Shown: one piece after another, positions 1,237 through 34,643 of the stretch
How the letters are laid out: each line of letters starts with the position of its first letter
Position numbering within the stretch: position 1 is the first letter of the stretch
Source of the DNA: a virus
Taxonomy: Duplodnaviria; Caudoviricetes
Virus record (IMG/VR): IMGVR_UViG_3300033070_001349
Coordinates: 84,483-148,482 of that record
Strand: one strand, 5' to 3'
Length of the DNA stretch: 64,000 bases
The notes under the pieces: generated by a model
Told to the model about the DNA's origin: nothing
Database searches by the model: none
What the model saw: only the letters and a program-made list of their open reading frames with translations
Position numbers and translations under genes: made by a program

Positions 1237-1629
1237 ATGACGACCCCGCCCTCGACTCCGCCCGTGATGAGCCTCGAAGAGGCGTGCGCCCGCGCCGCCC
1301 ACGAGGTGAACAACGTGTACAACCGCGCGATCGGCGACACGCTCTCCCCCGCGTTCGACGACCTCACCGAAGGGCAGAAGGGCGCGGCGGTGGAGGGGGC
1401 CCGCCACACTCTGGCAGGCGGAAGCGAGGAGGACTCGCACCGGAAGTGGATGGAGGCCCTCCTCGCCGAAGGGTGGACGCTCGGGCCGGTCAAGGACCCC
1501 GAGCTCAAGACCCACCCGAACCTCGTCCCCTACACCGAGCTCCCCAACGCGCAGCGGATCAAGGACACCCTCTTCCAGGCCACCGTCCGCTCGACCGCGG
1601 CGGCCGTCACCGCCGCGCGCGGGGGATGA
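1237..1629 (+). CDS. RyR-domain protein
   Basis: SHRKWM...EGWTLGPVKDPELKTHPNLVPYTELP...KD is the RyR repeat signature; GGAGG precedes ATG 1237. Confidence 0.8.
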   Translation: MTTPPSTPPVMSLEEACARAAHEVNNVYNRAIGDTLSPAFDDLTEGQKGAAVEGARHTLAGGSEEDSHRKWMEALLAEGWTLGPVKDPELKTHPNLVPYTELPNAQRIKDTLFQATVRSTAAAVTAARGG

Positions 1630-1645
1630 CCCGCTGGGCCCGCCG

Positions 1646-1861
1646 ATGAAGCTCCTCGCCGCCGCCCTCTACCTCGACCGCCCCTGCGCCATCCGCGCGT
1701 CCGTGGAGGACGACGGGGGCCACCGCCGGGTCATCTCCTACACCTGGAGGACGGCCCAGGAGTCCTCCATCCCCGACAGCTACCTCGACGCCCTCCAGGC
1801 TGAGTGCGAGTTCCAGCGCGCCGCCGAGCTCGCCAAGGACCAGGGCCGACTCCTCCCGTGA
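1646..1861 (+). CDS. hypothetical protein
   Basis: GC3-biased ORF whose stop overlaps the helicase start (GTGA). Confidence 0.6.
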   Translation: MKLLAAALYLDRPCAIRASVEDDGGHRRVISYTWRTAQESSIPDSYLDALQAECEFQRAAELAKDQGRLLP

Positions 1862-4470
1862 CGAGCCCGACCCCCACGAAGGTCATCGTCGACTCGATGG
1901 CGTGGGTCAGGAAGAGCGACCTCGCCGAGGTCCAGCTTGAGGCCCTGCGCCGGAACCTCACCCTCATCCCCAAGGCGGGCCCCTACGGCGACGCCCCGGC
2001 CCCGATCCTCCTCTACCAGGAGAACGCCGAGTGGTTCGGGATGGCGCGCGCCTACTACCTCGCCCGCCGCCAACCCCACCACGAGGTCGAGTTCCGATGC
2101 CGCCCCGGCGCGGCGTGGCCCGAGGGGCTTACCTGGAACCCCGAGGTCACCCTCCGCCCGGAGCAACAGCGCGCCCTCGACGAGGTCACGACGGCCTTCC
2201 GCGGCGGCGTGCTCGGGGGCATCGTCCGGGCCGCCCCGGGGTGGGGGAAGTGCGCCGTCTCCTCGACCTCCTTCGTCGACTCCACCACGGGGAGGAGAGA
2301 GACGATGGGGGCCTCGGTTGGTCGGCCCGTGGTCGTCCCCTCGCTCACCCCCGAGGGGCGGATCGAACATCGGTCCGTCGAGCGGGTGTGGTACGCCGGG
2401 AAGAAGCCGTGTCTCCGCATGGTCCTGGCCTCGGGCCAGAACTTCGGGGGGAGTGAAGATCACCCGGTGCTCACGGCCTCGGGCTACAAGGCCCTCTCCT
2501 CCCTTCGGGTAGGTGAGCTCGTGGCAACCGCGCGCTCCGTCCCGGCACCCGAGGGGGCCCCCTCCCTCACCGACGCCGAGGTACTCCTTTCCGCGGCGCT
2601 CTTGATGGACGGATCGACCAACCACACGTCCACCATCTACTGCAAGGGGGACCCGATCTTGACCGCCACGGTCCGGGCCGCTGCGATAGAGGTCGGGGGC
2701 CCCGACACGATCGGTCGCGAGTGGTTCGACCAAGGAGCCTACTACCTCGGGCTCTGCGGCCTCATCCCGTGGAGTGCTCGGCATGACCTACGCGGGCTCT
2801 CGAAGACCAAGCGGGTCCCTGCTCACTTCTTCGGCCTCGGAGACGCCCAGCTCGCACTCTTCCTTCGGTGGGTCTACACCGACGGGAATGTCTACGCGAA
2901 GGCTCCGCGGAAGGTAGAGCTATCCATGGCCTCCGAGGGCTTCATCGACGACGTTCAGTACCTCCTCCGGCGCTTCGGGATCGTCGCCCGTAAGACCTAC
3001 GCCCCCAAGTCGATCAAGAACAAGGTCACCGGAGAAAAGAAGTTCTATCCCGCGTGGCGCCTCCAGATCGCCGACGCTCCGAACCTCGTCCGCTTCCTCG
3101 AAGCCATCGGGCCCGTGCCGGGGAAGGAGGCGGCCTGCGTCGAAGTCCTCCAGCACGCCCGCGGGGTCTCCTCCAACCCGAACTGGGACGTGGTTCCCGT
3201 AGGGTCGAAGGAGCTCGCCGAGATCCGAGCCCAGGACCGCACGGGGGTGTGGGCTCGGGTCAAGGCCGCCGCGGGGTCCTACATCGGCCGGGACCGCTTC
3301 CTTCGTCTCTGCAAATCGAGTGGCTACGACGGCTCCTACCGCTCCTTCGCTGACGCCGACATCGTGTGGGAGAAGGTGAAGTCGCTCGAAGACCTCGGCG
3401 TTCAGGACGTGTACGACCTCACCGTGCCGGGGACGGAGAACGCCGTCGTCAACGCCGGGGTGGTCATCCACAATACGGTCTACTCGCTCCGGCTCATCGC
3501 CGAGCTCAAGGTCCCGACCCTCGTGGTGGTGCACAAGGAGTTCCTGGCAGACCAGTGGCTCGAACGGATCCACGGCAACCCGAAGAAGGGCCTCAAGCCC
3601 CTCCTCCTCGGGGCCAAGGTGGGCATCGCCCGCGGCGACCAGCTCGACTTCAAGGGGAAGCACATCGTCATCGGCATGGTGCACACCCTCGCCTCCAAGG
3701 ACTTCCCCCTGGAGTTCCTGCACTGGCCCGGCCTCATCCTCCCGGACGAATGCCACCGCATCGCGGCCCCGACGTGGAGCCCCACCCCCGGCCGGTTCCC
3801 CGCGCGGTGGCGCCTCGGGGTCTCGGCTACCCCTCGCCGGAAGGACGGCGCCGAGCGGGTCTTCCTAGACCACCTGGGCCCCGTGATCTTCAAGGGCGAG
3901 GAGCAGCGGCTCCCCTTCCGCGTCCGCCGGGTGTGGACCGGCTACAAGCCCCCCAAGGGCGGGCACGCCCACCTGTCGGGCCCGGCGGGGAAGGTGATGC
4001 TCCTCACGATCATGCTCGCCAACGCGGCCCGCAACGGGGTCATCGTCGAGCAACTCGTGGCCGCGATCCGCGCGGGCCGCAAGGTCATCGTCCTCTCCGA
4101 GCGCCTCGACCACCTCGACCGGCTCGACCAGCTCCTCCTCGCCGCGTGGACCGGGGACTGGGGGCCGCTCCCGACCACCGGCCGCTACGTGGGGGGGATG
4201 ACCTCGGAGGACCGCGAGGTCTCCGAGGGGAAACAGGTCATCTTCGCGACGTTCCAATACGCGGCCGAGGGCCTCGACATACCGCCGCTCGACACCCTCT
4301 TTCTGGTCTCCCCGGCCTCGGACGTGGAGCAGGCCGTGGGTCGCATCCGCCGCCCCTACGAGGGGAAGAAAGAGGCAGTCGTGGTCGACTTCCGGGACGA
4401 GAACGTGTCTTTCTGCGCCAGGGCCGCGGACGCCCGCGACAAGTTCTACCGGAAGTCCGGGGTGGTGTGA
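1858..4470 (+). CDS. superfamily 2 helicase (UvsW/ResIII-like) with intein
   Basis: Q motif LRPEQQ, Walker A PGWGK/T split by an intein, DECH, SATPRRKDG, EGLDIPPLD, QAVGRIRR; start placed at GTG 1858. Confidence 0.9.
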   Translation: MTSPTPTKVIVDSMAWVRKSDLAEVQLEALRRNLTLIPKAGPYGDAPAPILLYQENAEWFGMARAYYLARRQPHHEVEFRCRPGAAWPEGLTWNPEVTLRPEQQRALDEVTTAFRGGVLGGIVRAAPGWGKCAVSSTSFVDSTTGRRETMGASVGRPVVVPSLTPEGRIEHRSVERVWYAGKKPCLRMVLASGQNFGGSEDHPVLTASGYKALSSLRVGELVATARSVPAPEGAPSLTDAEVLLSAALLMDGSTNHTSTIYCKGDPILTATVRAAAIEVGGPDTIGREWFDQGAYYLGLCGLIPWSARHDLRGLSKTKRVPAHFFGLGDAQLALFLRWVYTDGNVYAKAPRKVELSMASEGFIDDVQYLLRRFGIVARKTYAPKSIKNKVTGEKKFYPAWRLQIADAPNLVRFLEAIGPVPGKEAACVEVLQHARGVSSNPNWDVVPVGSKELAEIRAQDRTGVWARVKAAAGSYIGRDRFLRLCKSSGYDGSYRSFADADIVWEKVKSLEDLGVQDVYDLTVPGTENAVVNAGVVIHNTVYSLRLIAELKVPTLVVVHKEFLADQWLERIHGNPKKGLKPLLLGAKVGIARGDQLDFKGKHIVIGMVHTLASKDFPLEFLHWPGLILPDECHRIAAPTWSPTPGRFPARWRLGVSATPRRKDGAERVFLDHLGPVIFKGEEQRLPFRVRRVWTGYKPPKGGHAHLSGPAGKVMLLTIMLANAARNGVIVEQLVAAIRAGRKVIVLSERLDHLDRLDQLLLAAWTGDWGPLPTTGRYVGGMTSEDREVSEGKQVIFATFQYAAEGLDIPPLDTLFLVSPASDVEQAVGRIRRPYEGKKEAVVVDFRDENVSFCARAADARDKFYRKSGVV
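2251..3474 (+). mobile_element. intein (408 aa) with LAGLIDADG endonuclease, in helicase Walker A
   Basis: Starts CAVSS, block B SEDHPVLT, AALLMDG and FLRWVYTDG motifs, ends VYDLTV...VIHN with Thr at +1. Confidence 0.9.
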
Positions 4471-23687: not shown

Positions 23688-26600
23688 ATGGCGCTCTCCT
23701 ACGAGTTTGTGACCCGCGCCGAGCGCCTGGAGCACATCGCGAACGAGATCGCCGAGGCCGAGGTGGTGGCCCTCGACCTTGAGACCACGCCCAAGAAGCA
23801 GTGGTTGAAGCGCCAGGGGGCGGCCTTCTCGCCCCTGTACGGCGAGAGCCGCATCGCGTCGTTCAACACCGGCAAGGGGCGCTACGTCATCGACCTCTGG
23901 CAGACCGGGGGCCTCGGGCCGATCGCCAAGGCCCTCCACAACCCCACCGCCGCGGTCGGCAAGGGCCGCCCGGTGATGGTCCTCCAGAATTGCCTCACGG
24001 CCGACAGCCGGGTCCTCCTGGCCGACGGGTCCAAGGTCCGGCTCGACAAGCTGGTCCGGGACAAGCACCCCGGGCCGGTGCTGTGCCTCAACGAGGCGAC
24101 AGGCGAGATCGAGTCCAAGCCCATCGTCGGGTGGATCAAGGCGCCGGTTCGACCGTGGGAGGACTGGCTCCGGGTCCAGGTCCGGGGCAAGGGGTGCCTG
24201 CGGCTCACCAAGGACCACGTCGTCCTGACCCGGCGGGGCCGAGTACCCGCGGCGGACCTTCGCGTAGGGGATGAGATCCTCACCCGCTCCCCCGCCCTCA
24301 CCGCCGCCCAACGGGACCTCATCTTCGGGTCCCTCCTTGGGGATGCCTCTATCGTCCTCCAGGCTGAGTCCAAGGCCCGCTCCCCCCTCTTCCAGGTCTC
24401 GCATTCCGAGCCCCAGCGGGCCTACGTCGAGTTCAAGGCCCGGGTCATGGGCGACCTCTTCAAGGGCCTCTCCCGCGGGAAGCCCGCGAAGCGGGGCTTC
24501 GGGGCCCGCACGGGCGTCGTCCTGTCCTGCGCCAGGACCCGCTCCGACGCTCGACTGTGGCCCGTACGAGACGCCTGCATCCGCGAGGGCAAGAAGACCC
24601 TCACCCCCGAGTGGCTTGCCGAATTGACGTGGGCGTCCCTCGCCGTATGGTACTGCGACGACGGCTCCCTCGCGGGGCGAGGGGTCTCCGTTTGCGTGTC
24701 GAAGTTCGGGGAGACGGGCATCCCGCTCCTGGTCTCCCACCTCGAAGGGCTCGGCCTTCCGGTGGGGCTCACGACTCGCGAGGACGGCCACGTCTACCTC
24801 CACATGGCCGGGAGCAAGGGCGAGCGGCGCAACCCGGCCATGACCGGCTTCTGGGAGAACATCGCCCCGTGGGTTCCCCCCTGCATGGCGTACAAGCTCC
24901 CCGAGGAGTACCGCGAGCTCGCCTCCGAGACCCGGTGGATGGAACCTGAGGCCCCGAAGGTTGGGGCCGACACGGTGATCGAGATTCGCCCCCTGGCTCG
25001 GGAGCCCGGGGACGCCCGCCGTCACGGCGGGTTCAAGCGAGAGGGTCGCGGGCTCGCTCAATACTGTTTGACGGTGCAGGACAACCCCAACTTCTTCGTC
25101 GAGGGCCTGTCCGTAAGCAACTGCAAATTCGACCAGCGCTACCTACTCCACGAGTACGGGATCGAGCTCTGGCCTGTCTTCGACACCTTCCGCGCCTCGG
25201 CGATGATCCACAACGGGAAGGGGCTCGGTCACAACCTCTGGGACCTCTACGACCGCGAGCTCCAGATGGAGCCCTCCGTCGAGGACCTCGGCGGGTCCAA
25301 CTGGGGCTCGACCGTCCTGACGCAGCAGCAACTCGACTACGCCGCGGACGACATCATCTACCTGCCCCACCTCCGGGACAGCTTGAAGCCCAAGCTCGCG
25401 CGGCTCGGGCTCAACCGCGTGGCGCAGATCGAGTTCGGCGCCATCCTCCCCGAGGCAGTGGTCGAGCTCAACGGCTTCCCCTTCGACTCGGACGCATGGC
25501 TCGCCCTCGCGGCGACCAACCGCGCCGCCCGTGACAACCTCGGCCGGGAGATCCTCCGGCTCCTCCCCAACCCCTCGGGCCAGCTCTCCCTCATGGGGAG
25601 CGAGGAGTGGATGTACGGGCCCGATTGCCTCTCCGACTGGGCCGACTCCGTCACGGACGAGATGGAGGAGGCCGAGGGGGACGACAGCTCCGGGGGGTTC
25701 CAGGCCGCGTGGTACGAGGTTCAGGCCCAGCTTCGGCGGGCCGCTCGGCCCAAGGGGTCGAAGAAGACCGCGCACTTCAACCCCGATTCGCAGAAGCAGC
25801 TACTCGCGAGCCTCCGCCGGATGGGCGGGCCCCTCAAGGACCTCCCGGACACCTCCGAGGCCACCCTCTCGCTCTACGCGGCCAAGCTCCCGGCGATCAA
25901 GAAGCTCCTCGACTACCGAGAGGCGGCTACCCGGTGCAAGAGCTTCGGCCCCGAGTACCTCCAACACGTCAGTCCGGTCACCGGCCGCATCCACCTAGAC
26001 TACTACCCCCTCCTCGTCACCGGCCGGTACGCCCACCGGAACCCGAACCTCGGGCAGATCCCCAGGTACAAGCCCTTCCGCAAGTGCTTCAAGGTCAAGC
26101 CCGGCCGCCGGATGACCTTGTGCGACTACTCCATGGTCGAAATCGTCCTCATGGCCGAGCTCACCGGGGATAGGACCCTGTGCAGGCTGCTCCGCGAGGG
26201 CCGGGACGTGCACCGCTACGTCGCCTCGCGCATCCTGAACAAGCCCGAGGCGGACATCACGAAGGAGGAGCGGCAGCAGGCCAAGCCCGCCGACTTCGGG
26301 TTCATCTACGGCCTTGGCGCCGAGCGCTTCGTCTCCTACGCCCTCGTGGGCTACAACGTGGTGCTCACGCTCGAACAGTCGCACCACATCCGCAACACCT
26401 TCTTCGGTGAGTTCCCGGACATCGCGGATTGGCAGGAGTACGCCATCGCGAACGGCAAGCGGACCCACATGACGCGCTCGATCCTCGGGCGCCTCCGCTA
26501 CACCGGGGAGAAGGAGCACAACGAGTACCTCAACACGCCAGACCAAGCCTCGGGCGCGGACGGCCTGAAGATGGCCCTGCGGGACCTCCACTTCGCCCTC

Positions 26601-26807
26601 CGTAACAAGTTCGGCCCCGACGCGGTGAAGATGGTTCACCACGTCCACGACGAGACCATCCTCGAACACGCGGACGACCCGGACCTGGAGAAGGAAGTCC
26701 AGAAGGTTCAGTCCTCGGTGATGGTCGAGGCCATGTCCCGCATCGTGACGAAAGTCCCTGTGGTAGCGGAGTCCGCCTCCGGCTACTCGTGGGCCGACAA
26801 GGGCTAG
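23688..26807 (+). CDS. polA: family A DNA polymerase with 3'-5' exonuclease and intein
   Basis: ExoI DLET, ExoII QN/CKFD split by an intein, ExoIII YAADD; TGR..RNPNL, motif A DYSMVE, motif B RQQAKPADFGFIYG, motif C VHDE. Confidence 0.92.
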   Translation: MALSYEFVTRAERLEHIANEIAEAEVVALDLETTPKKQWLKRQGAAFSPLYGESRIASFNTGKGRYVIDLWQTGGLGPIAKALHNPTAAVGKGRPVMVLQNCLTADSRVLLADGSKVRLDKLVRDKHPGPVLCLNEATGEIESKPIVGWIKAPVRPWEDWLRVQVRGKGCLRLTKDHVVLTRRGRVPAADLRVGDEILTRSPALTAAQRDLIFGSLLGDASIVLQAESKARSPLFQVSHSEPQRAYVEFKARVMGDLFKGLSRGKPAKRGFGARTGVVLSCARTRSDARLWPVRDACIREGKKTLTPEWLAELTWASLAVWYCDDGSLAGRGVSVCVSKFGETGIPLLVSHLEGLGLPVGLTTREDGHVYLHMAGSKGERRNPAMTGFWENIAPWVPPCMAYKLPEEYRELASETRWMEPEAPKVGADTVIEIRPLAREPGDARRHGGFKREGRGLAQYCLTVQDNPNFFVEGLSVSNCKFDQRYLLHEYGIELWPVFDTFRASAMIHNGKGLGHNLWDLYDRELQMEPSVEDLGGSNWGSTVLTQQQLDYAADDIIYLPHLRDSLKPKLARLGLNRVAQIEFGAILPEAVVELNGFPFDSDAWLALAATNRAARDNLGREILRLLPNPSGQLSLMGSEEWMYGPDCLSDWADSVTDEMEEAEGDDSSGGFQAAWYEVQAQLRRAARPKGSKKTAHFNPDSQKQLLASLRRMGGPLKDLPDTSEATLSLYAAKLPAIKKLLDYREAATRCKSFGPEYLQHVSPVTGRIHLDYYPLLVTGRYAHRNPNLGQIPRYKPFRKCFKVKPGRRMTLCDYSMVEIVLMAELTGDRTLCRLLREGRDVHRYVASRILNKPEADITKEERQQAKPADFGFIYGLGAERFVSYALVGYNVVLTLEQSHHIRNTFFGEFPDIADWQEYAIANGKRTHMTRSILGRLRYTGEKEHNEYLNTPDQASGADGLKMALRDLHFALRNKFGPDAVKMVHHVHDETILEHADDPDLEKEVQKVQSSVMVEAMSRIVTKVPVVAESASGYSWADKG
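23991..25121 (+). mobile_element. intein (377 aa) with LAGLIDADG endonuclease, in the polymerase ExoII motif
   Basis: CLTADSRV start, LTKDHVVLT, FGSLLGDAS and AVWYCDDGS motifs, ends NFFVEGLSVSN with Cys at +1. Confidence 0.9.
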
Positions 26808-26868: not shown

Positions 26869-27387
26869 ATGAAGATCGCTCCCCTCGGTGACCGTGTTCT
26901 CGTCCGGCTCGACACGGCGGAGGTGTCGCGCGGCGGCATCTTCCTCCCCGGCGCCACCCTCATCACCGTGGGCCGCGGTGTGGTCGAGAGCGTCGGCCCC
27001 GGCCGCCTCGCCCCCTCCGTGACCTACATCGAGCCCGCCGACCTCACGGAGGACCTCGTCCACTTCGCCCTCCGGCACCGCGAGGAGCTCTCGAAGGGCG
27101 ACCGGCTCCCCATGGAGGTGAAGCCCGGCGACCGCATCCTCTTCCCGCAGGCGGCCGGGACCCCCCTGGAGGTCGACACCCCCGAGGAGTCCACCCCCGA
27201 GGAGCCCGCCGCGGTCCCTTCGGCCCAGGAGCTCCCCGTCGAGGAGCCCGCCCCGCGCCCCCTCCGCCGAACCAAGCGGGAGCGCTTCGTCCTCCTCCGC
27301 CACGACGACATCATGGCGGTCCTCTCGGGCGAGGGCGAGATCCACCAGCGGATCCCCGAGCCCGGTGAGCCCCTGCCCGGAACCTGA
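26869..27387 (+). CDS. groES: GroES-like co-chaperonin with two insertions
   Basis: MKIAPLGDRVLV, GGIFLP, GVVESVGPG, EVKPGDRILF, LLRHDDIMAVL. Confidence 0.85.
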   Translation: MKIAPLGDRVLVRLDTAEVSRGGIFLPGATLITVGRGVVESVGPGRLAPSVTYIEPADLTEDLVHFALRHREELSKGDRLPMEVKPGDRILFPQAAGTPLEVDTPEESTPEEPAAVPSAQELPVEEPAPRPLRRTKRERFVLLRHDDIMAVLSGEGEIHQRIPEPGEPLPGT

Positions 27388-27405: not shown

Positions 27406-28107
27406 GTGCCGAAGAAGCCCCCCGTCCTGACCAAGCCCAAGACGCCCTCGAAGGGGGAGGTCCTCGCCCAGCTCAAGGCCCTTCCGTGCTTCGAGGAGGT
27501 CAAGGCCAAGATCCTAGACGGGGTGCCGGTGCTTCAGGTGGCCCGGTGGATTCAGGACCAGGGCGAGTACGCCACCGCCTCGGAGGCCTCGCTCGCCAGG
27601 GCCCTCCACCGCTTCAAGGAGGAGCTACCTCCCGCGGCCTTCGTCCAGGCCGCCCTCCCGAAGGTCCACCAGGAAGCCCTCGCCGAGGTGAAGCAGGGCC
27701 TCGCCGAGGTGGACGAGTTGGCCCACCTCTACGCCTTGCAGAAGGGGCGGATCCACAAGCTCCTCAAGGTCGAGGAGACCATGCCCTCGATCCTCTTCCC
27801 GAACCTGTCCCAGGAGTTCCGCATCGCCGCCGAGCTCCTCCGCACCTCGGCGGAGCTCAAGGGCAAACTCGGGCTCCTCAAGCCGGGCCCGCGCGAGCCC
27901 TCCGGTGACCAGGGGGCGGGGGAGGAGGTCCCGATCGAGGACACGATCGAGGCCCTCGCCGCCGCCCACCCGACCGTCCCCGTCGCCGCCGTCTTCCGGG
28001 ACCCGGAGAAGGTCCACCGCATCATCGGGTTGATGAAGACCGTGTCGACCCTCCAGGTGATGGTGGAGTCCGCCCCCGCCAAGCTCGGCACCGGGGGCGG
28101 CCCGTGA
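27406..28107 (+). CDS. putative terminase small subunit
   Basis: N-terminal HTH-like segment plus coiled coil; GTGA overlap with TerL. Confidence 0.5.
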   Translation: MPKKPPVLTKPKTPSKGEVLAQLKALPCFEEVKAKILDGVPVLQVARWIQDQGEYATASEASLARALHRFKEELPPAAFVQAALPKVHQEALAEVKQGLAEVDELAHLYALQKGRIHKLLKVEETMPSILFPNLSQEFRIAAELLRTSAELKGKLGLLKPGPREPSGDQGAGEEVPIEDTIEALAAAHPTVPVAAVFRDPEKVHRIIGLMKTVSTLQVMVESAPAKLGTGGGP

Positions 28108-31100
28108 TCGACATTCGCGGGGGCCGCGCCCGCTCGATCCGAGAGCAGTCAGAGGTCGAAGCCGCCCTCCGCGAGGAGCTCAAGGGCCTCACCCCGGAGG
28201 AGCTCGCCGTCCTCGACCTCCTCTTGAAGGAGCAGGGCAAGGCGCCCCTCCCCGGGGTGGACCCGGGCCTCTCGGTCCTGCGGGCCCTCGAACGCACGGA
28301 GTGGAAGGTCCCGCCGGTCGACATGCGGACCTTCATCTACGACCCCTACTACCTCGGGGAGTCGTGCGGCGAGCTCTACCCCTCCCACTACGCGGACCTC
28401 TCTGAGCTCTTCGACCGCGGGGGCTACCACGAGGCCCTGTGGACGGGCGCGATCGGATGCCTGCGGGGAGACACCCCCGTCCACGACCCGGTCACGGGCA
28501 TCACCGCCTCCGTGGAGGCCCGCTACCAGGAGGGCCGTCCCTTCCACGTCTGGTCCCGCTCGGACGCCGGGCCGGTGATCGCCGAGGCGTGGGCCCCCCT
28601 GCGCTACCCCGAGGCCCCGATGTTCCGGGTCACCCTCGACACCGGGGAGTCGTGCGTCGTCACCCCCGAGCATCGGTTCTGGGACGGTTTCAGGTGGGTG
28701 ACCGCTTCCGAGGTCCGCGAACGCCTGCGAGGATCCGAGCTTGTCCTGCTTCCGTCCAGTTCGGACATCGTCCCTTCAACTCGTGCGCGAGGTGCTCTCC
28801 GTTCGACGCGAAGAGTTCCAGGTTCTCCGGGCGGTTGTCGGCCGGGTCTCCGTTCCGATGGTGGACGACCTCCTTCGGATCGAGAAGACGCCCGAGGGTG
28901 GTCTCCATCACGAGGCGATGCTCTCGGACGTACCCGTGGCTATCCGCGTTCGGATGGTCAGGGCGAAGGAGGAGCACATAGCCGGACTTGTCGAGCATCC
29001 GCCCCCCCTTCCACGACCAGTTCCTCCCTTCTCTCGGGCCCCGACGCCGAGGCTCTTCTCCTAGCGCTCGAAGGGCGGCGGCCACCCGGTTCCGACTCGA
29101 TCCGACGAGTGCGGCGACTTCTGGCAGCGTGTGCCCTTCTCGGTACAGCTCTAGGGCTCGGGCCCGACGCTCATCCGTCCATCGCGCCCCAAGGTTGCAG
29201 GGCTTCTCGGGCGTCCATCGGGCCGTCATGGGGTGAGCTCTACCCTGACGGGAGCGAATGGACAAGGACGGCGGCTCGTGTCGTGTCCGTGGAAACAGAG
29301 GCCCCCGAGCCCTACTTCGACTTCCACGTCCCGATCCACAACAACTACGCCGCCGCGGGCCTATGGCACCACAACACCGGCAAGAGCTTCTCCGCCTCCG
29401 TCGGCGTGTGCCGCGTCCTCTACGAAATCTCGTGCATGAGGGACCCGCACGGGGCCTTCCACATCGCCCGGCACTCGCCGATCCACCTCGTGTGCCTCTC
29501 CGTCACCGAGGACCTCGCGATCAAGGTCGCCTTCGACTACATCATCGAGAAGATCCAGCTCTCCCCCTACTTCCGCGAGAACTTCCCCTACCGCCCAGGG
29601 AAGAAGGAGTTTCTCTTCCCGAACAAGGTGTCCCTCGCGGCCCGCGCGACCACCGACACCTCGGCCCTCGGGCTCAACGTCATCTCGGTCTTCCTCGACG
29701 AGTCCGACTTCATCAAGAAGCCCGGCAAGGCGAAGCTCGCGGCCGGGGAGAAGGACACCGCCGAGCGCATCTACGCGAAGCTCAAGCGCCGCGTGAAGAG
29801 CCGCTTCCAGCGCAACGGCCGCCTCCCCGGGATGCTCTTCATCGTCTCGTCCAAGCGCCGCACCGACGACTTCTCCGCCCGGCACATCGAGAAGAGCCGC
29901 CACGACCCCACCGTCTTCGTCTCGGACAAGTCCCTGTGGGACGTGAAGCCCGAGTCCTACTCGAAGGAGCGCTTCCACGTCTTCGTCGGGAACGAGAGCC
30001 TCCCCTCGAAGATCCTAGAGCCCGCCGAGGTCGAGACCTACCGGGCCGTCGCAGAGGGCAAGGATACGTGCGTGGTCTTGGAGGTCCCCGAGGACTTCCG
30101 CCCTGACTTCGAGCGCGAGCTCGAAGAGGCGATCCGGGACATCGCCGGGGTCGCCACGGTCTCGATCGCCCCCTTCATTCAGCGCCGCGAGCGGATCCAG
30201 GCGGCGGCCGACTACGGCGACGCGAACGGCCTCCTCCACCCGTTCAGCACCGTCGAGTACGTTCCGGGGTCCGGCGCTGAGTTCCTGTGGGGCATCCTCG
30301 CCGAGACCTACTCGCACCCCCTCTCCGAGGGTGGCTACGAGACCAAGTGGCGCCCGCGGCTCAACCCGTGGGCCGCACGCCACGTCCACATCGACCCGTC
30401 GCTCACCGGGGACTCGACCGGCCTCGCGATCGGCCACGTCGCCGGGTACAAGGAGGTCCTCCGCCGGGACTCCAACCACAGGATCTACGCCGAGAAGGCC
30501 CCGGTCATCGTCATCGACCTGATCCTGCGGATCGTCCCGCCCCTAGGGGACGAGATCATCCTCGGGGACGTGCGGGCCCTCGTCTACCAGTGGGCCGAGC
30601 ACGGGTTCCGCCTCGCGAAGATCACCATGGACTCCTTCCAGAGCGCGGACGGACTCCAGCAGATGGCCCAGAAGGGGTACAGCGCCGAGGTCTACTCGGT
30701 CGACCGGACCCCCACCGCCTACGAGATGCTCAAGACGGCCCTCTACGAGGGGCGCCTCATCTACTACGGCTACCCCAAGCTCCTCGAAGAGCTCAGGAAG
30801 CTCGAAAAGAACCACGTCACGCACAAGGTCGACCACCCGCCCATGGGCTCCAAGGACTGCGCGGACGCCGTGGCGGCCCTGGTGGCGACCCTGTCGGGCG
30901 TGATCGCCGACGTGGCGACAGACCCCCTACCCATGCTCCGCGGTCTCTCGTATTCTCCCGAGCTCGTGAGCCCCTCCGCCGCCTCCACCCCCGCCCAGGC
31001 CGCCCAGGTCGCCCACGCTCCAGTCTCCGACCGGGTGGCCTCGGCCCCTCTCGGGATGGTGGCCCCGGAGCCACATGACTCCAACCCCTACGGCGCGGAG

Positions 31101-31112
31101 TACGAGCCCTGA
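28104..31112 (+). CDS. terminase large subunit with intein
   Basis: Walker A TGAIG/TGKS after splicing, Walker B VFLDE, nuclease HIDPSLTGDSTG, ITMDSFQS, KVDHPPMGSKDCADAV. Confidence 0.9.
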   Translation: MIDIRGGRARSIREQSEVEAALREELKGLTPEELAVLDLLLKEQGKAPLPGVDPGLSVLRALERTEWKVPPVDMRTFIYDPYYLGESCGELYPSHYADLSELFDRGGYHEALWTGAIGCLRGDTPVHDPVTGITASVEARYQEGRPFHVWSRSDAGPVIAEAWAPLRYPEAPMFRVTLDTGESCVVTPEHRFWDGFRWVTASEVRERLRGSELVLLPSSSDIVPSTRARGALRSTRRVPGSPGGCRPGLRSDGGRPPSDREDARGWSPSRGDALGRTRGYPRSDGQGEGGAHSRTCRASAPPSTTSSSLLSGPDAEALLLALEGRRPPGSDSIRRVRRLLAACALLGTALGLGPDAHPSIAPQGCRASRASIGPSWGELYPDGSEWTRTAARVVSVETEAPEPYFDFHVPIHNNYAAAGLWHHNTGKSFSASVGVCRVLYEISCMRDPHGAFHIARHSPIHLVCLSVTEDLAIKVAFDYIIEKIQLSPYFRENFPYRPGKKEFLFPNKVSLAARATTDTSALGLNVISVFLDESDFIKKPGKAKLAAGEKDTAERIYAKLKRRVKSRFQRNGRLPGMLFIVSSKRRTDDFSARHIEKSRHDPTVFVSDKSLWDVKPESYSKERFHVFVGNESLPSKILEPAEVETYRAVAEGKDTCVVLEVPEDFRPDFERELEEAIRDIAGVATVSIAPFIQRRERIQAAADYGDANGLLHPFSTVEYVPGSGAEFLWGILAETYSHPLSEGGYETKWRPRLNPWAARHVHIDPSLTGDSTGLAIGHVAGYKEVLRRDSNHRIYAEKAPVIVIDLILRIVPPLGDEIILGDVRALVYQWAEHGFRLAKITMDSFQSADGLQQMAQKGYSAEVYSVDRTPTAYEMLKTALYEGRLIYYGYPKLLEELRKLEKNHVTHKVDHPPMGSKDCADAVAALVATLSGVIADVATDPLPMLRGLSYSPELVSPSAASTPAQAAQVAHAPVSDRVASAPLGMVAPEPHDSNPYGAEYEP
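28690..29229 (-). CDS. HNH homing endonuclease nested antisense inside the TerL intein
   Basis: N-terminal HTH (LELYREGHTLPEVAALVGSSRNRV), WKGGR, GYV...HP...GYVREHRLVME..LGR.L...EVVHHRNGDPADNRPENL. Confidence 0.85.
   Translation of the reverse strand: MTARWTPEKPCNLGARWTDERRARALELYREGHTLPEVAALVGSSRNRVAAALRALGEEPRRRGPREGRNWSWKGGRMLDKSGYVLLLRPDHPNADSHGYVREHRLVMETTLGRLLDPKEVVHHRNGDPADNRPENLELFASNGEHLAHELKGRCPNWTEAGQARILAGVRGPRKRSPT
29237..29265 (-). promoter_or_regulatory. candidate internal promoter for the antisense HNH gene
   Basis: On -: TTGTCC-17 nt-TAGAGC-7 nt-ATG, the same geometry as other leaderless promoters here, but with an imperfect -10. Confidence 0.4.
31067..31082 (-). repeat. 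dispersed palindrome copy 5, in the TerL tail just upstream of the portal gene
   Basis: GGAGCCACATGACTCC. Confidence 0.9.
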
Positions 31113-31116
31113 CGCC

Positions 31117-33903
31117 ATGGGGATCCTCGACGGCCTCACCTCCGTAGCCCGCCGGGTCCGGCAGTGGGCCACCTCGACCAGGACCCGCCAAGCCCGCGAG
31201 CTTGCCGTGGGCGGCACTGGGGCCTCCGCCCTCGGCACCGGCTACGACCTCCTCTCGTCCTACGGGGCGGACAACCTCTCCTCGTACCTCCAGCTCGACC
31301 ACGGCCTGTTGGAGCGGTACAGCGACTATGAGGGGATGGACGAGTACCCCCTGGTCTCGTGTCTAGCGGGCGATTCGCTCGTTTTCACGCTCGAAGAGGG
31401 ATGGGTTCCGATCCGCACGCTGGCCGATCGCGGTCTGGAGTTCCACGTCCTCGCCTACGACAAGGCGACCCGGTCCCTCGTCCCGGCGAAGGCATCGGAC
31501 GCTCGCTGCACGGGGCCAGAAGGGCACGCGAAGCCCATGGTTCGGGTCGTCACGGACGATGGCCGAACCATCACCTGTACGTCGGACCACCTCTTCCTCC
31601 TCAAGGACGAGGTCTGGCGTACCGCGGGGGACCTCCAACCCGGAGACCGGCTCATGCCCGGGGTTCTGCGCCAGAGGCACCTCGCCGTATGCTCGCAGAC
31701 CTACTGGGAGGTGCACCAGCCCCAGTCGGACTCCACCTACCGGGCCTCGGATGGCAAGCGGTGGGTGTGGCTCCACCGGCTCGTGGCGGAGACGCTCCTC
31801 GGGGCGGTCCCTTCGGCGGGAGAGGTCGTCCACCACATCGACGAGAACACGCACAACAACGCCCCGAGCAACCTGAGCATCGAGGACAACGCCTCCCACG
31901 CCCGGATCCACCTCGCAGGCATCGACAACACGCGCTTCTTCCCGGAGTGGACGGCGGAGCGCCGCGCCCAGGCCGCCGAGCGGATGCGGGGCAACGACTT
32001 CGCCCTCGGCAAGAAGTTCTCGCCCGAGGTCAAGCAGCGGTTGTCGGAGGCCCGGAAGGGCCGCCCCAAGTCCGAAGCGCACCGTCGGGCCATCGGTCTC
32101 GCGCAGCCCTCTCGCGTCGCTCTGCCCCGCGAGGTGGTCGAGGGAGCCCTCCGGGAAGGGGGCACCGTAGCGCGTGCCGCTCGCCTTCTCGGGGTATCGT
32201 GGAGCACCATGAATCGTAGGGCCGAGGAGTTCGACCTCCTCTCGTCCGAGGCGAACCATCGGGTACTTCGGGTGGAGGTTCTCCCCTCGCGCGAGCCCGT
32301 CTACGACCTCACGGTGCCGGGCTTCCACAACTTCGTCTGCAACGGCGTGGTCGTCCACAACAGCGCCCTCGACGTGTACGCCGACGACGCGACGCAGACC
32401 GACCAGCAGACGGGGAAGGCGATCTGGGCCAAGTCCAAGGACCACCGCGTCGAGGAGATCCTGAACGACCTCCTCCACAAGGTGCTCCACATCGAGGACG
32501 AGCGCTGGGAGCTCGCCCGCACGCTCTGCAAGCACGGCAACGACTACGAGGAGCCCATCATCACGAACGAGGGCGTGGTGGCCCTCAACTTCCTCCCGGC
32601 CCCGACGATGCGCCGCCTCGAAGGCTCCAGGGGGGAGCTCTACGGCTACGTTCAGGACTTCCGGGGGAAGGTCGGGTACACGGTCCAAGAGTGGCAGCAG
32701 CTCATGGAGGCGCGCGACACCAAGCCGCGCCGCCCCCCTTTCGACCCAAGGGACCCGAACCTCGAACCTCCGGGGGAGGACGAGTACGTCGCGCCCTTCG
32801 AGGACTGGGAGGTGGTGCACTTCCGGCTCCGGGGCAGGCACCGCCGGTCGGTCTACGGCCACGCGGTTCTGGAGTCGGCGCGGTTCATCTACCGGCGGCT
32901 CATGCTCTTGGAGGACGCGGCCCTCATCTTCCGCCTCCAGCGGGCCCCCGAGAAGCTCGCCTTCTACGTGGACGTGGGTCAGATGCCCTCCACCGAGGCT
33001 CTCGCGCACGTCCGCCGTGTGCGCAACGACCACAAGAAAAAGAAGTTCATCAACCCCACGACGGGCCAGCTCGCGACCCGGATAGAGGCCTTCTCCCCCG
33101 ACGCCGACTACTGGGTCCCCTCCCGCGACGGCAAGGACTCCACCCGGATCGAGACGGTCTCCTCCCCCTCGTGGCAGCACATGGAGGACATCGAATACTT
33201 CCGCTCGATCCTCTTCGCCGCCATGAAGATCCCCAAGGCGTACCTCGGCGGTGACGAGGGCGTGGTGAACTCCGTCCTCTCCTCGCAGGACGTTCGCTTC
33301 GCCCGCACGATCCTCCGGGTGCAACAGGCCCTCAGGCAGGGCCTCCAGGCGATCTGCCGCATCCACCTCGCGGCCCTCGGGATCGACCCGAACCGGGTCG
33401 AGTTCGAGATCGAGATGACCATTCCGAGCTCGATCTTCGAGCTCGCCCAGCTCGAAGCCCGGAACGCTCGCGCCGACCTCGCGGGCCGGATGCGCGAGTT
33501 CGTCGACATGCGCACGATCCTTCAGGACGTGTTCGGGCTCTCGGACGAGGAGACCCTCCGGGTGGTGCAGGGCAAGCACCAGGACGCGGTCAGGGACGCC
33601 TTCACGCAGGCCAAGGTCCAATCCATCATGGGCGGTCCCGGCGGGCCCCGCGCTCCCGGGGGTGCCCCTGGCGGGCCCGAGGCCGCGCCCATCCCGCTCA
33701 CGCGCCGCCGGGCCGGGCTCCCGAACCTCATGCCGAACGACCTGGAGAAGGAGCTCTACGCCTCCCCCACCTCCAGCCGCCGGTCCCGGCAGTTCGAGAA
33801 GAAGCTCGACGAGGTCCTCAAGGGCGACCAGCTCCTCGCGGCCCGGCTCCAAGAGGTGAAGGAGCTCGTTCAGATGGTCTCCCAGTTCCGCCGTGCCTCG
33901 TGA
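31117..33903 (+). CDS. portal protein (T4 gp20-like) with intein
   Basis: MDEYPLVS/SALDVYADD, LEDAALIFRLQRAPE..AFYVDVG, DYWVP.RDG...TRIET, EDIEYF...LFAAMKIPKAYL, DVRFARTI. Confidence 0.9.
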   Translation: MGILDGLTSVARRVRQWATSTRTRQARELAVGGTGASALGTGYDLLSSYGADNLSSYLQLDHGLLERYSDYEGMDEYPLVSCLAGDSLVFTLEEGWVPIRTLADRGLEFHVLAYDKATRSLVPAKASDARCTGPEGHAKPMVRVVTDDGRTITCTSDHLFLLKDEVWRTAGDLQPGDRLMPGVLRQRHLAVCSQTYWEVHQPQSDSTYRASDGKRWVWLHRLVAETLLGAVPSAGEVVHHIDENTHNNAPSNLSIEDNASHARIHLAGIDNTRFFPEWTAERRAQAAERMRGNDFALGKKFSPEVKQRLSEARKGRPKSEAHRRAIGLAQPSRVALPREVVEGALREGGTVARAARLLGVSWSTMNRRAEEFDLLSSEANHRVLRVEVLPSREPVYDLTVPGFHNFVCNGVVVHNSALDVYADDATQTDQQTGKAIWAKSKDHRVEEILNDLLHKVLHIEDERWELARTLCKHGNDYEEPIITNEGVVALNFLPAPTMRRLEGSRGELYGYVQDFRGKVGYTVQEWQQLMEARDTKPRRPPFDPRDPNLEPPGEDEYVAPFEDWEVVHFRLRGRHRRSVYGHAVLESARFIYRRLMLLEDAALIFRLQRAPEKLAFYVDVGQMPSTEALAHVRRVRNDHKKKKFINPTTGQLATRIEAFSPDADYWVPSRDGKDSTRIETVSSPSWQHMEDIEYFRSILFAAMKIPKAYLGGDEGVVNSVLSSQDVRFARTILRVQQALRQGLQAICRIHLAALGIDPNRVEFEIEMTIPSSIFELAQLEARNARADLAGRMREFVDMRTILQDVFGLSDEETLRVVQGKHQDAVRDAFTQAKVQSIMGGPGGPRAPGGAPGGPEAAPIPLTRRRAGLPNLMPNDLEKELYASPTSSRRSRQFEKKLDEVLKGDQLLAARLQEVKELVQMVSQFRRAS
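31360..32361 (+). mobile_element. intein (334 aa) with in-frame HNH, NUMOD3-like and HTH modules, in the portal gene
   Basis: CLAGDSLV start, TSDHLFL, HRLVAE...VHHIDENTHNNAPSNL, GKKFSPEVKQRLSEARKG, ends VYDLTVPGFHNFVCNGVVVHN with Ser at +1. Confidence 0.9.
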
Positions 33904-33910
33904 CGGGCTA

Positions 33911-33940
33911 TTGACGCCGCTCGGGTCCCTTCGGTAGCGT
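33911..33940 (+). promoter_or_regulatory. possible sigma70-type promoter
   Basis: TTGACG-18 nt-TAGCGT upstream of GTG 33951. Confidence 0.4.
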
Positions 33941-33950
33941 CCTCTTCGTC

Positions 33951-34643
33951 GTGAGTTCGTTCGAGTCGATGATCGAAGCAAGGCGCCGGGCTCTTCAAGA
34001 GCAGGCCCCGTTCGTCTTCGACCCCACCGCTGAGTGGGCGATCCTTCGGACCTACCCGACCTACACCTCCGTTCGTATCGGCACCCGCACGGCGGTCGTG
34101 ATCGAGTCGGCCTCGGGTCTCCTCGTCCTTCCGCCCTCCCACCTCCGCGCTCGGGTCTCCCTTTCGGAGGGAGCGATCCCGGCCGCCGCGCTCGTGGACG
34201 CCTCCCCGGACGCCGACGACGCCTCCGTCATGCGTCGGGCTCTCCGCGCGGCTTCCTTCGGGGAGGGCCTGGACGCGAAGTTCCTGACCGGCCGGGTGTC
34301 CCGATCGGATATCCAGGTCGAGGACCCGGACAGGTTCCGCTCCGTCTCGCTTGTGGATGAGGACACCCGCATGGCCCTTCGCGCGCCCATGCGTGCGGCC
34401 ATCCGGGCTCAACTCTCTGAGCGCGAGAGGCTCTACCGCAGGGCGTGCGCCCGCTCCGTCTCCGAGGACGCGGCGACCCCCCTTCGGGCCCTTCTGTTGG
34501 CGACGCCTTCGGCGTTGGCCGCCTGCGTCCGCACCGGGCGCAGGGTAGTCGAAACCATCGAAGACCCCTTGTTTCTCGCGAACTACCACCGTAGTCTCGC
34601 CGAGCGACACATCCCCCACACGATCCTCGCAGGTACGGAGTAG
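33951..34643 (+). CDS. hypothetical head-module protein
   Basis: ORF between portal and scaffold/protease genes. Confidence 0.6.
   Translation: MSSFESMIEARRRALQEQAPFVFDPTAEWAILRTYPTYTSVRIGTRTAVVIESASGLLVLPPSHLRARVSLSEGAIPAAALVDASPDADDASVMRRALRAASFGEGLDAKFLTGRVSRSDIQVEDPDRFRSVSLVDEDTRMALRAPMRAAIRAQLSERERLYRRACARSVSEDAATPLRALLLATPSALAACVRTGRRVVETIEDPLFLANYHRSLAERHIPHTILAGTE

Follow-up and report, generated by a model that had tools for sequence, protein, structure and literature searches.

An intein in a phage terminase gene with a predicted HNH endonuclease gene nested on its opposite strand

The window, by which we mean the whole stretch of 64,000 nucleotides analysed here, is part of a 148-kb IMG/VR virus record (IMGVR_UViG_3300033070_001349; Duplodnaviria, Caudoviricetes), and contains a gene for the large subunit of a phage terminase (TerL) which is interrupted in its ATP-binding loop by an intein. 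Inside this intein, on the other strand, lies a complete gene for a protein with a helix-turn-helix (HTH) and an HNH nuclease domain. The two very probably form a composite selfish element, in which a splicing intein is combined with an HNH endonuclease that is encoded independently of it, in antisense. A preliminary description, made from the letters of the window alone, had proposed such a dual-coding mobile element, and the proposal was supported: purifying selection acts on the HNH frame only, stop codons have been purged from the sense frame in 48 lineages, a filler predicted to be disordered separates the folded lobes of the intein, and intein-free alleles occur patchily among the relatives. 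The features on which the analysis rests are listed below; pLDDT stands for predicted local distance difference test, the score given to the AlphaFold2 models.

28104..31112, plus strand: TerL precursor open reading frame (ORF) with the intein included, 1002 aa, from the ORF list and its translation
28104..28457, plus strand: N-extein, up to and including WTGAIG, the first half of Walker A; allele P0005, which lacks the intein, has WTGSIGTGKS
28458..29375, plus strand: putative class-1 intein, 306 aa (TerL aa 119-424), with Cys1, TPEH in block B, terminal HHN and +1 Thr
28458..28784, plus strand: N-terminal Hint lobe, intein aa 1-109, pLDDT ~84-95
28785..29264, plus strand: sense-frame filler, Arg/Gly/Ser/Pro-rich, predicted disordered, intein aa 110-269 (160 residues), pLDDT <50
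29265..29375, plus strand: C-terminal Hint lobe with blocks F and G, intein aa 270-306, pLDDT 87-95
29376..31112, plus strand: C-extein, from TGKS (second half of Walker A), with the remaining ATPase and the nuclease domain
28690..29229, minus strand: predicted HTH+HNH_3 endonuclease gene nested antisense in the intein, 179 aa plus stop
29065..29175, minus strand: three-helix HTH at the N-terminus of the endonuclease, aa 19-55 (helices 19-30, 35-42 and 46-55), pLDDT ~87-92
28777..29001, minus strand: HNH nuclease core, beta-beta-alpha, aa 77-151, pLDDT 90-95
28690..28784, both strands: two-strand coding overlap of folded segments, the last 32 HNH codons against Hint intein aa 78-109
29230..29265, minus strand: weak promoter-like string TTGTCC-17-TAGAGC-7 abutting the ATG, candidate promoter of a leaderless mRNA

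The intein and the antisense gene

The C-extein (residue 425 onward) shares 33-37% identity with annotated large terminase subunits of phages (E ~1e-74), and PF27249 is present in the closest TerL homologues. The insertion splits the Walker A loop (WTGAIG / C...HHN / TGKS), and its boundaries are exact because an intein-free homologue, P0005, with 69% extein identity, reads WTGSIGTGKS at the same site. The intact splicing blocks first reported for this intein were all found: a Cys nucleophile in an in-frame insertion, the TxxH of block B (TPEH, intein aa 69-72), the Asp of block F, the His-Asn end and a +1 Thr, which is the set that defines a class-1 intein by sequence. Among 10 relatives Cys1, H72 (block B), D288 (block F) and N306 are invariant and H305 is nearly so, and the C-terminal motif YDF.VP..NNY....G..HHN is conserved. 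The Pfam Intein_splicing match of the window intein is weak (1.1e-3; 19.2 bits, under the cut-off of 35.8). The AlphaFold2 model of the 306 residues consists of two confident lobes (pLDDT ~90) joined by the low-confidence filler, and in Foldseek searches it matched the mini-inteins of RecA, DnaB (NpuDnaB, SspDnaB) and DnaE, with E values of 1e-6 to 1e-4 and template modelling (TM) scores of up to 0.83. These features make it a class-1 intein of the Hint fold; splicing itself is predicted from the intact catalytic residues and from the position in an essential Walker A loop.

The minus-strand ORF is free of stops from 29265 and would comprise 191 codons if started at an upstream TTG, or 179 from the ATG at 29229; its stop codon lies at 28690-28692, and the gene spans intein codons 78-258. 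The earlier claim that this is a complete HTH and HNH protein was corroborated by matches to Pfam HNH_3 (PF13392; 9.7e-11, 41.6 bits against a cut-off of 24.8) and HTH_23 (6e-6), and to HNH families of PHROG (1.5e-26). The AlphaFold2 model of the protein has a mean pLDDT of 77.9, and residues H104, R105, H123, H124, N132, N136 and H146 are invariant across 12 homologues. Its HTH resembles the DNA-binding domain of GcrA in structure (Foldseek target TM 0.80-0.86), with a weak sequence match (Pfam GcrA E = 0.06). The protein is a predicted homing endonuclease of the HNH_3 type, which would cleave the empty allele site-specifically. As had also been noted, its 3' end overlaps Hint codons: in both models about 32 codons encode two folded segments at once, and the remainder of the HNH gene lies opposite the disordered filler.

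Selection on the two frames and signals of expression

The closest same-length TerL homologues, P0004 and P0014, are encoded at the loci L027 and L028/L029. L027 and L028 carry the same intein at the same site, with the same antisense gene starting from an ATG equivalent to that at 29229, which is thus conserved. The DNA that carries the two frames is 66-69% identical between the window and these two loci. When compared in the HNH frame, the three sequences gave ratios of nonsynonymous to synonymous substitution rates (dN/dS) of 0.07-0.18 and amino-acid identities of 71-74%, whereas in the sense frame of the same DNA the apparent dN/dS was ~2 and the identity 31-40%, with no stop codon in the window, L027 or L028. 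A comparison of both frames had been suggested at the outset as a check, and the adverse outcome, conservation of the sense frame only, was not seen in L027 and L028. HNH codon position 3, equivalent to sense position 2, accounts for most of the differences, and together with the contrasting dN/dS this indicates that the information sits in the minus-strand frame; in a separate cluster of loci around L005, 21 of the 39 variable sites are likewise at HNH codon position 3. The HNH gene is maintained by selection and is no pseudogene, and the plus-strand frame across the filler is merely kept open. The featureless character ascribed to the middle of the sense frame agrees with its pLDDT of <50 over aa 110-269 and with an alignment of the filler from 48 lineages, in which mean column identity is 22% and no column is invariant. 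A functional sense-frame domain within the filler was considered and rejected.

A whole-TerL search for related loci in IMG/VR returned none, and TerL relatives were obtained by protein search instead. The HNH protein and its alignment were searched in IMG/VR and in GTDB genomes, yielding 188 loci and 145 non-redundant homologues. A homologue was called nested when the HNH gene lay antisense inside an ORF of >=300 aa, and the number of stops expected in the sense frame was calculated by exact dynamic programming over synonymous recodings, with the codon usage of the extein. None of the 48 non-redundant nested loci, which range in GC content from 0.32 to 0.68, has a stop in the sense frame, and all 48 share one phase, with HNH codon position 1 opposite host position 1. 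In this phase, TT, CT or TC at the end of an HNH codon creates a sense stop if the next codon begins with A. Synonymous recoding is expected to produce 2-12.8 stops, depending on the nested locus; the probability of finding none, P(0), has a median of 5e-4 and a minimum of 1.8e-9. In 84 free-standing homologues the shared frame contains 4.15 stops per 100 codons, versus 0.0 in the nested genes, and in the remaining two antisense frames stops are equally frequent in nested and free-standing genes. The stop-forming dipeptide Phe-[Ile/Met/Thr/Asn/Lys] was absent from the 8 representative nested proteins examined. The phase of the nested loci is not the most permissive antisense phase; a codon-aligned phase can always be cleared of stops by synonymous changes.

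In an analysis of the window and its two close relatives P(0) was 0.039 for the window and 0.032 and 0.056 for the relatives, or ~7e-5 jointly, and the three can be treated as nearly independent since their synonymous sites are saturated (dS >1). The sense frame is open beyond chance, as is expected of the antisense-endonuclease class of inteins. The purging of stops across so many lineages speaks directly for translation of the host frame through the antisense gene; the openness is decisive across the relatives, though marginal for the window.

Signals that could drive separate expression of the nested gene were strongly enriched in the family. Motifs resembling a Shine-Dalgarno (SD) sequence precede the HNH start in 24 of 48 lineages compared to a background of 10% (p = 7e-12), and -10-like boxes, several of them a perfect TATAAT, were found in 21 of the 48 nested genes, compared to 4% (p = 1e-16). 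The proposal that the endonuclease is expressed independently is thereby supported for many relatives, whereas the window's own promoter is weak. The promoter-like string reported ahead of the window gene (TTGTCC-17-TAGAGC-7-ATG) is indeed present on the minus strand, at 29265-29227, but a scan of 28300-29600 for sigma-70 promoter and terminator consensus sequences gave 0 sites. The window, L027 and L028 share a -35-like hexamer, a spacer of 16-18 nt, and TAGAGC, TAGACT and TAGGCT, respectively, 7 nt from the ATG. It is a matter of speculation that the HNH gene is expressed early, or that its transcript damps terL.

Relatives, spread and alternative explanations

The ORFs that host the nested gene encode terminases of several families, in which the intein lies between G and [S/T/C]GK[S/T], or between GK and [T/C], as well as, in L030, an AAA+ ATPase and, in L018, a DEAD-box helicase. 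In the last case (L018:2880-8474) the antisense-HNH intein is located within a 1865-aa DEAD/Helicase_C protein, after MSGDTVKNDS. A profile was made of the 48 sense-frame sequences opposite the HNH core and searched among 1.84 billion proteins; the number of cluster representatives matched was 889 at E<=1e-3 and 368 at E<=1e-10. Pfam Intein_splicing spanned the filler match in 6 of 8 sampled matches (marginally in one of the six), and the exteins named among the samples were Terminase_3, a helicase and a Prim-Pol/DnaB-like helicase. The profile also places the element in P0149, a Prim-Pol/DnaB-like primase-helicase. Contigs with nested copies were binned with Planctomycetota, Acidobacteriota, Actinomycetota, Pseudomonadota, bacteria of the candidate phyla radiation (CPR) and archaea. 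Loci of the family are also present in isolates of Plastorhodobacter daqingensis and Polynucleobacter (L069 and L072).

Several observations point to mobility, the occurrence of related inteins in unrelated exteins among them. In the cluster L005-L016 only 5.5% of sites vary in the HNH region, versus 24% in the flanking C-extein, a classic sign of an element that would be younger than its hosts and has probably spread horizontally in recent times. For the lineage of the window the evidence is patchy distribution only: an intein-free TerL allele is 69% identical to that of the window and an intein-bearing one 67%. Between the window and L028 the HNH protein is 72% conserved and the extein 48%. 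Sporadic occurrence and apparent horizontal spread are what would be expected of a homing element. In a FastTree phylogeny of 133 homologues the nested state requires 8 changes, versus 39 with shuffled labels. The fixed phase and this clustering favour one or a few captures of the HNH gene, followed by spread as a unit, without amounting to proof.

A wider reading may be considered, which we find almost, but not quite, as easy to accept as to doubt. According to it, the window element would belong to a large and essentially unannotated superfamily (at least 368-889 clusters at 50% identity) of P-loop-targeting inteins with a phase-locked antisense HTH-HNH gene that has its own promoter and ribosome-binding site. 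It would derive from one or very few captures by a mini-intein, would continue to move into terminases, AAA+ ATPases and helicases in phages of many bacterial phyla, and would have yielded split inteins repeatedly, the relative L111 being an example; a minus-strand transcript might also time or damp the terminase.

The element would work as follows. TerL would be translated straight through the filler, on which the absence of stop codons would be the sole constraint, and the Hint lobes would associate and excise the entire insert in cis, restoring GAIG-TGKS. The HNH gene would be transcribed and translated separately, from antisense signals just upstream of its ATG, near the C-terminal Hint lobe. 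Its product may cut or nick the intein-free P-loop alleles of co-infecting relatives, and recombinational repair would then copy the intein and the nuclease gene together. Labour would thus be divided between an intein that makes the insertion harmless in an essential gene and a nuclease that confers mobility. As to origin, a free-standing HNH gene may have entered a mini-intein on one or a few occasions, after which the combined unit would have spread through P-loops in terminases, AAA+ ATPases and helicases.

Several observations weigh against this interpretation or some part of it. The HNH copy of the window has neither an SD sequence nor a consensus promoter, and the layout of its promoter-like string, which would suit a leaderless mRNA, could equally be conserved as a result of sense-frame coding. 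When the endonuclease model was compared with the PDB by Foldseek nothing was found at E<=1e-3, the HTH alone gave a good match, and I-HmuI ranked 17th (TM 0.31); a PDB profile search similarly returned only HTH-type matches, with no significant match for the nuclease domain. Taken alone, the window is only marginally unusual in its open sense frame (2.0 stops expected, P(0 stops) = 0.038), owing to its GC content of 68%. In the HNH tree 41 of the 48 nested genes fall in one bipartition and 7 lie outside it, and as this bipartition is weakly supported a single origin is unproven. The co-divergence of Hint and HNH sequences (r = 0.71, Mantel p ~0.005) is driven by a close trio and falls to r = 0.03 without it. 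Finally, cis-splicing, nuclease activity, the target site, homing into Walker A and independent transcription are properties that we infer for this phage.

Among the other explanations, it is unlikely that the HNH gene has been domesticated and serves the phage as a packaging-associated nuclease acting with the terminase, or through an antisense RNA that regulates terL, rather than as a homing enzyme. Its location within terL, as the sole minus-strand gene in a block of plus-strand late genes, would fit such a role, and HNH proteins beside terminase genes are common in phages and in HK97-like ones act in packaging with the terminase (PMC3592412). A role in packaging does not account, however, for the same nested gene in inteins that interrupt AAA+ ATPases, DEAD helicases and a primase-helicase, nor for the lack of the whole element from close TerL alleles or the cluster in which divergence is much lower in the intein than in its extein.

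Another explanation, which we consider quite unlikely, is that the window intein is functionally split (a 'fractured gene'), so that two polypeptides, the C-terminal half being made from an internal GTG, are spliced in trans and the open sense frame is incidental. A true split form of the same element does exist in the relative L111, whose HNH protein is 60% identical to that of the window and whose sense frame contains six stops. Its parts are the following (positions are those of L111).

2808-3470, minus strand: ORF of N-extein and N-intein, ending at a stop inside the HNH region
2309-3004, plus strand: HNH gene, antisense between the intein halves
1461-2288, minus strand: Met-initiated ORF of a 37-aa C-intein and an AAA+ C-extein

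The whole locus (1461-3470) is a naturally split form of the window's element, in which the fractured gene houses an HNH endonuclease. Fractured genes are distinguished by a stop that follows the N-intein and by a C-terminal half with its own start codon; both features are present in L111, and in the window the frame is continuous. It is also true that the gene caller of the record started the window TerL at an internal GTG in the equivalent place (P0003, 609 aa), and that at 68% GC some 4% of recodings would be open by chance. Against a split intein stand the joint chance of ~7e-5 that the window and both its close relatives should be open by accident despite dS >1, the open frame in 48 of 48 nested lineages and not in free-standing homologues, and the lack of an ATG or SD ahead of the C-terminal lobe in the window.

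That the antisense HNH gene is an inactive relic, either a former in-frame domain that was inverted or a dead invader, leaving a mini-intein filled with junk, is very unlikely. The window copy without consensus promoter or SD might be read in this way, and the portal gene of the window holds an intein with an in-frame HNH_3 domain that is 39% identical over the nuclease core; yet that intein has HNH followed by HTH and the antisense protein has HTH followed by HNH. A relic would also not be expected to retain dN/dS of 0.07-0.18, with 71-74% protein identity over DNA that is 66-69% identical, all of its catalytic HNH residues invariant, a conserved ATG, and SD and -10 signals strongly enriched among relatives, and a decayed relic was rejected on these grounds.

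That the finding is an artefact is scarcely credible, whether as an antisense ORF open by chance in GC-rich DNA, as a mis-assembly or inversion, or as a group I intron: long spurious antisense ORFs are indeed common in the window (872 aa opposite the portal gene), but the Pfam and PHROG matches exceed their thresholds, the HNH frame is under purifying selection and the layout recurs in unrelated contigs by the dozen, with GC contents as low as 32%. A chance ORF was ruled out by the family-profile matches, the purifying selection and the recurrence; mis-assembly by an independent 34-kb Logan contig, which covers the entire gene with 3 differences, and by a 394-bp contig from a different study and an independent sample, identical to the window over 29084-29477; and a group I intron by the Hint fold, the splicing residues and a search of 28200-29600 in Rfam that gave no match and no sign of a group I or II intron. 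The stop-free frame opposite the portal gene runs from 31363 to 33981 on the minus strand and is accompanied by many other long antisense ORFs; these are an artefact of GC-rich DNA and show how little an open frame proves by itself in this genome.

Relation to known systems

Antisense endonuclease ORFs of the LAGLIDADG type have been reported in inteins of Synechocystis DnaX and of a Chloroflexus SpoVR-like protein (Gorbalenya 1998; Gogarten et al. 2002, both as cited in bioRxiv 10.1101/2025.01.02.630785), and actinophage examples are given in the same preprint. Like these, the TerL element is contiguous, has an opposite-strand endonuclease ORF in the endonuclease slot, keeps its sense frame open and is apparently still mobile. 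It differs in its HTH and HNH_3 nuclease; the LAGLIDADG cases are few, and no phase-lock, recoding statistics or P-loop-wide spread is described for them in the preprint. The preprint also describes VSR-like endonucleases encoded in separate antisense or shifted frames of phage inteins, many of them in TerL; their in-frame translation is predicted to be structureless, and the proposed origin is the invasion of an intein by a free-standing endonuclease gene. The terminase site, the separate antisense frame and the structureless sense filler are common to both groups, but the VSR-like set was drawn from cultured actinophages (63 non-canonical inteins), whereas the present group is of the HNH type and spans hundreds of metagenomic clusters and many phyla.

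HNH is given in bioRxiv 10.1101/2025.01.02.630785 solely as an in-frame intein domain, and full-text literature searches found no report of an antisense HNH gene in an intein, HNH being reported in frame only. The window nuclease lies outside the reported antisense types, LAGLIDADG and VSR-like. What is new is an element of the HNH type that is phase-locked and very widespread; the concept of an antisense-endonuclease intein is already published and no new category is involved, so that the novelty implied in the preliminary description, which preceded comparison with the LAGLIDADG and VSR-like cases of that preprint, was overstated.

Fractured genes are split inteins with a free-standing GIY-YIG or Vsr-like gene between the halves, for which HNH was only predicted (Dassa et al. 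2009, PMC2677866). They resemble the present element in having a free-standing endonuclease gene in the intein slot, L111 being exactly such a split form, and the model put forward in PMC2677866 links contiguous and split forms of inteins. Unlike them, the window intein is contiguous, with an open frame under selection. The ShiLan element (2025, PMC11855218) conceals an HNH homing gene in a different frame of an insertion that leaves the host frame open; its HNH gene, unlike that of the TerL element, is on the same strand, there are no intein splicing domains, and the insertion is presumed to be accommodated as a loop and not spliced. The insertion of terminase inteins in the P-loop is well known (Kelley et al. 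2016).

Within the window, the portal intein resembles the TerL element as a mobile unit of Hint splicing domain, HNH_3 and HTH, and is unlike it in that the nuclease is part of the same polypeptide, strand and frame. In collaborative homing, reportedly described by Bonocora and Shub and by Zeng et al. (2009) for T4-like phages and cyanophages, a group I intron that lacks an ORF is accompanied by a neighbouring free-standing endonuclease. In both collaborative homing and the TerL element separate splicing and nuclease units move together; in the former, splicing is of RNA and the nuclease gene lies beside the splicing unit, not antisense inside it.

The element would be a splicing-only intein and a free-standing endonuclease gene fused in DNA and not in protein, which is the intermediate predicted by 'splicing first' models, and its contiguous and split forms are both at hand for comparison. 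If the superfamily reading is true, the family would be a living series of the intermediates postulated for the acquisition of endonucleases and for the origin of split inteins. It also provides a clean natural case of long two-strand coding (~540 nt), in which ordinary purifying selection acts on one strand and only selection against stop codons on its complement, and which should be a useful test for overlap-aware models of selection. Gene callers break or shorten TerL (609 of 1002 aa) and miss the endonuclease, which probably leaves hundreds of terminases, ATPases and helicases of phages with faulty annotation. As tools, compact inteins that tolerate an unstructured loop of 160 residues and a set of P-loop-directed HNH nucleases are predicted.

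The shortened TerL of the record, P0003 (window 29283-31112), starts within the C-terminal Hint lobe, and the homologue P0015 is shortened likewise. P0015 and P0027 bear another intein, with in-frame HNH_3, whose insertion site (VDHPPxG / C...VHN / SKD) is a second one and lies in the nuclease domain, and further homologues of the window TerL bear in-frame LAGLIDADG inteins, so this TerL family is host to at least three types of intein.

The statement that the other three inteins of the window carry their endonucleases in frame held for the two that were checked. The gene for a family A DNA polymerase (23688-26807) contains an intein with in-frame LAGLIDADG_2, and the T4-like portal gene (31075-33903) one with in-frame HNH_3 and HTH. 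The portal genes of L027 and L028 are free of inteins, as is the polymerase gene of L028. Just upstream of the terminase region, at 26869-27387 on the plus strand, lies a GroES-like ORF of 172 aa (MKIAPLGDRVLVRL...) with extra insertions.

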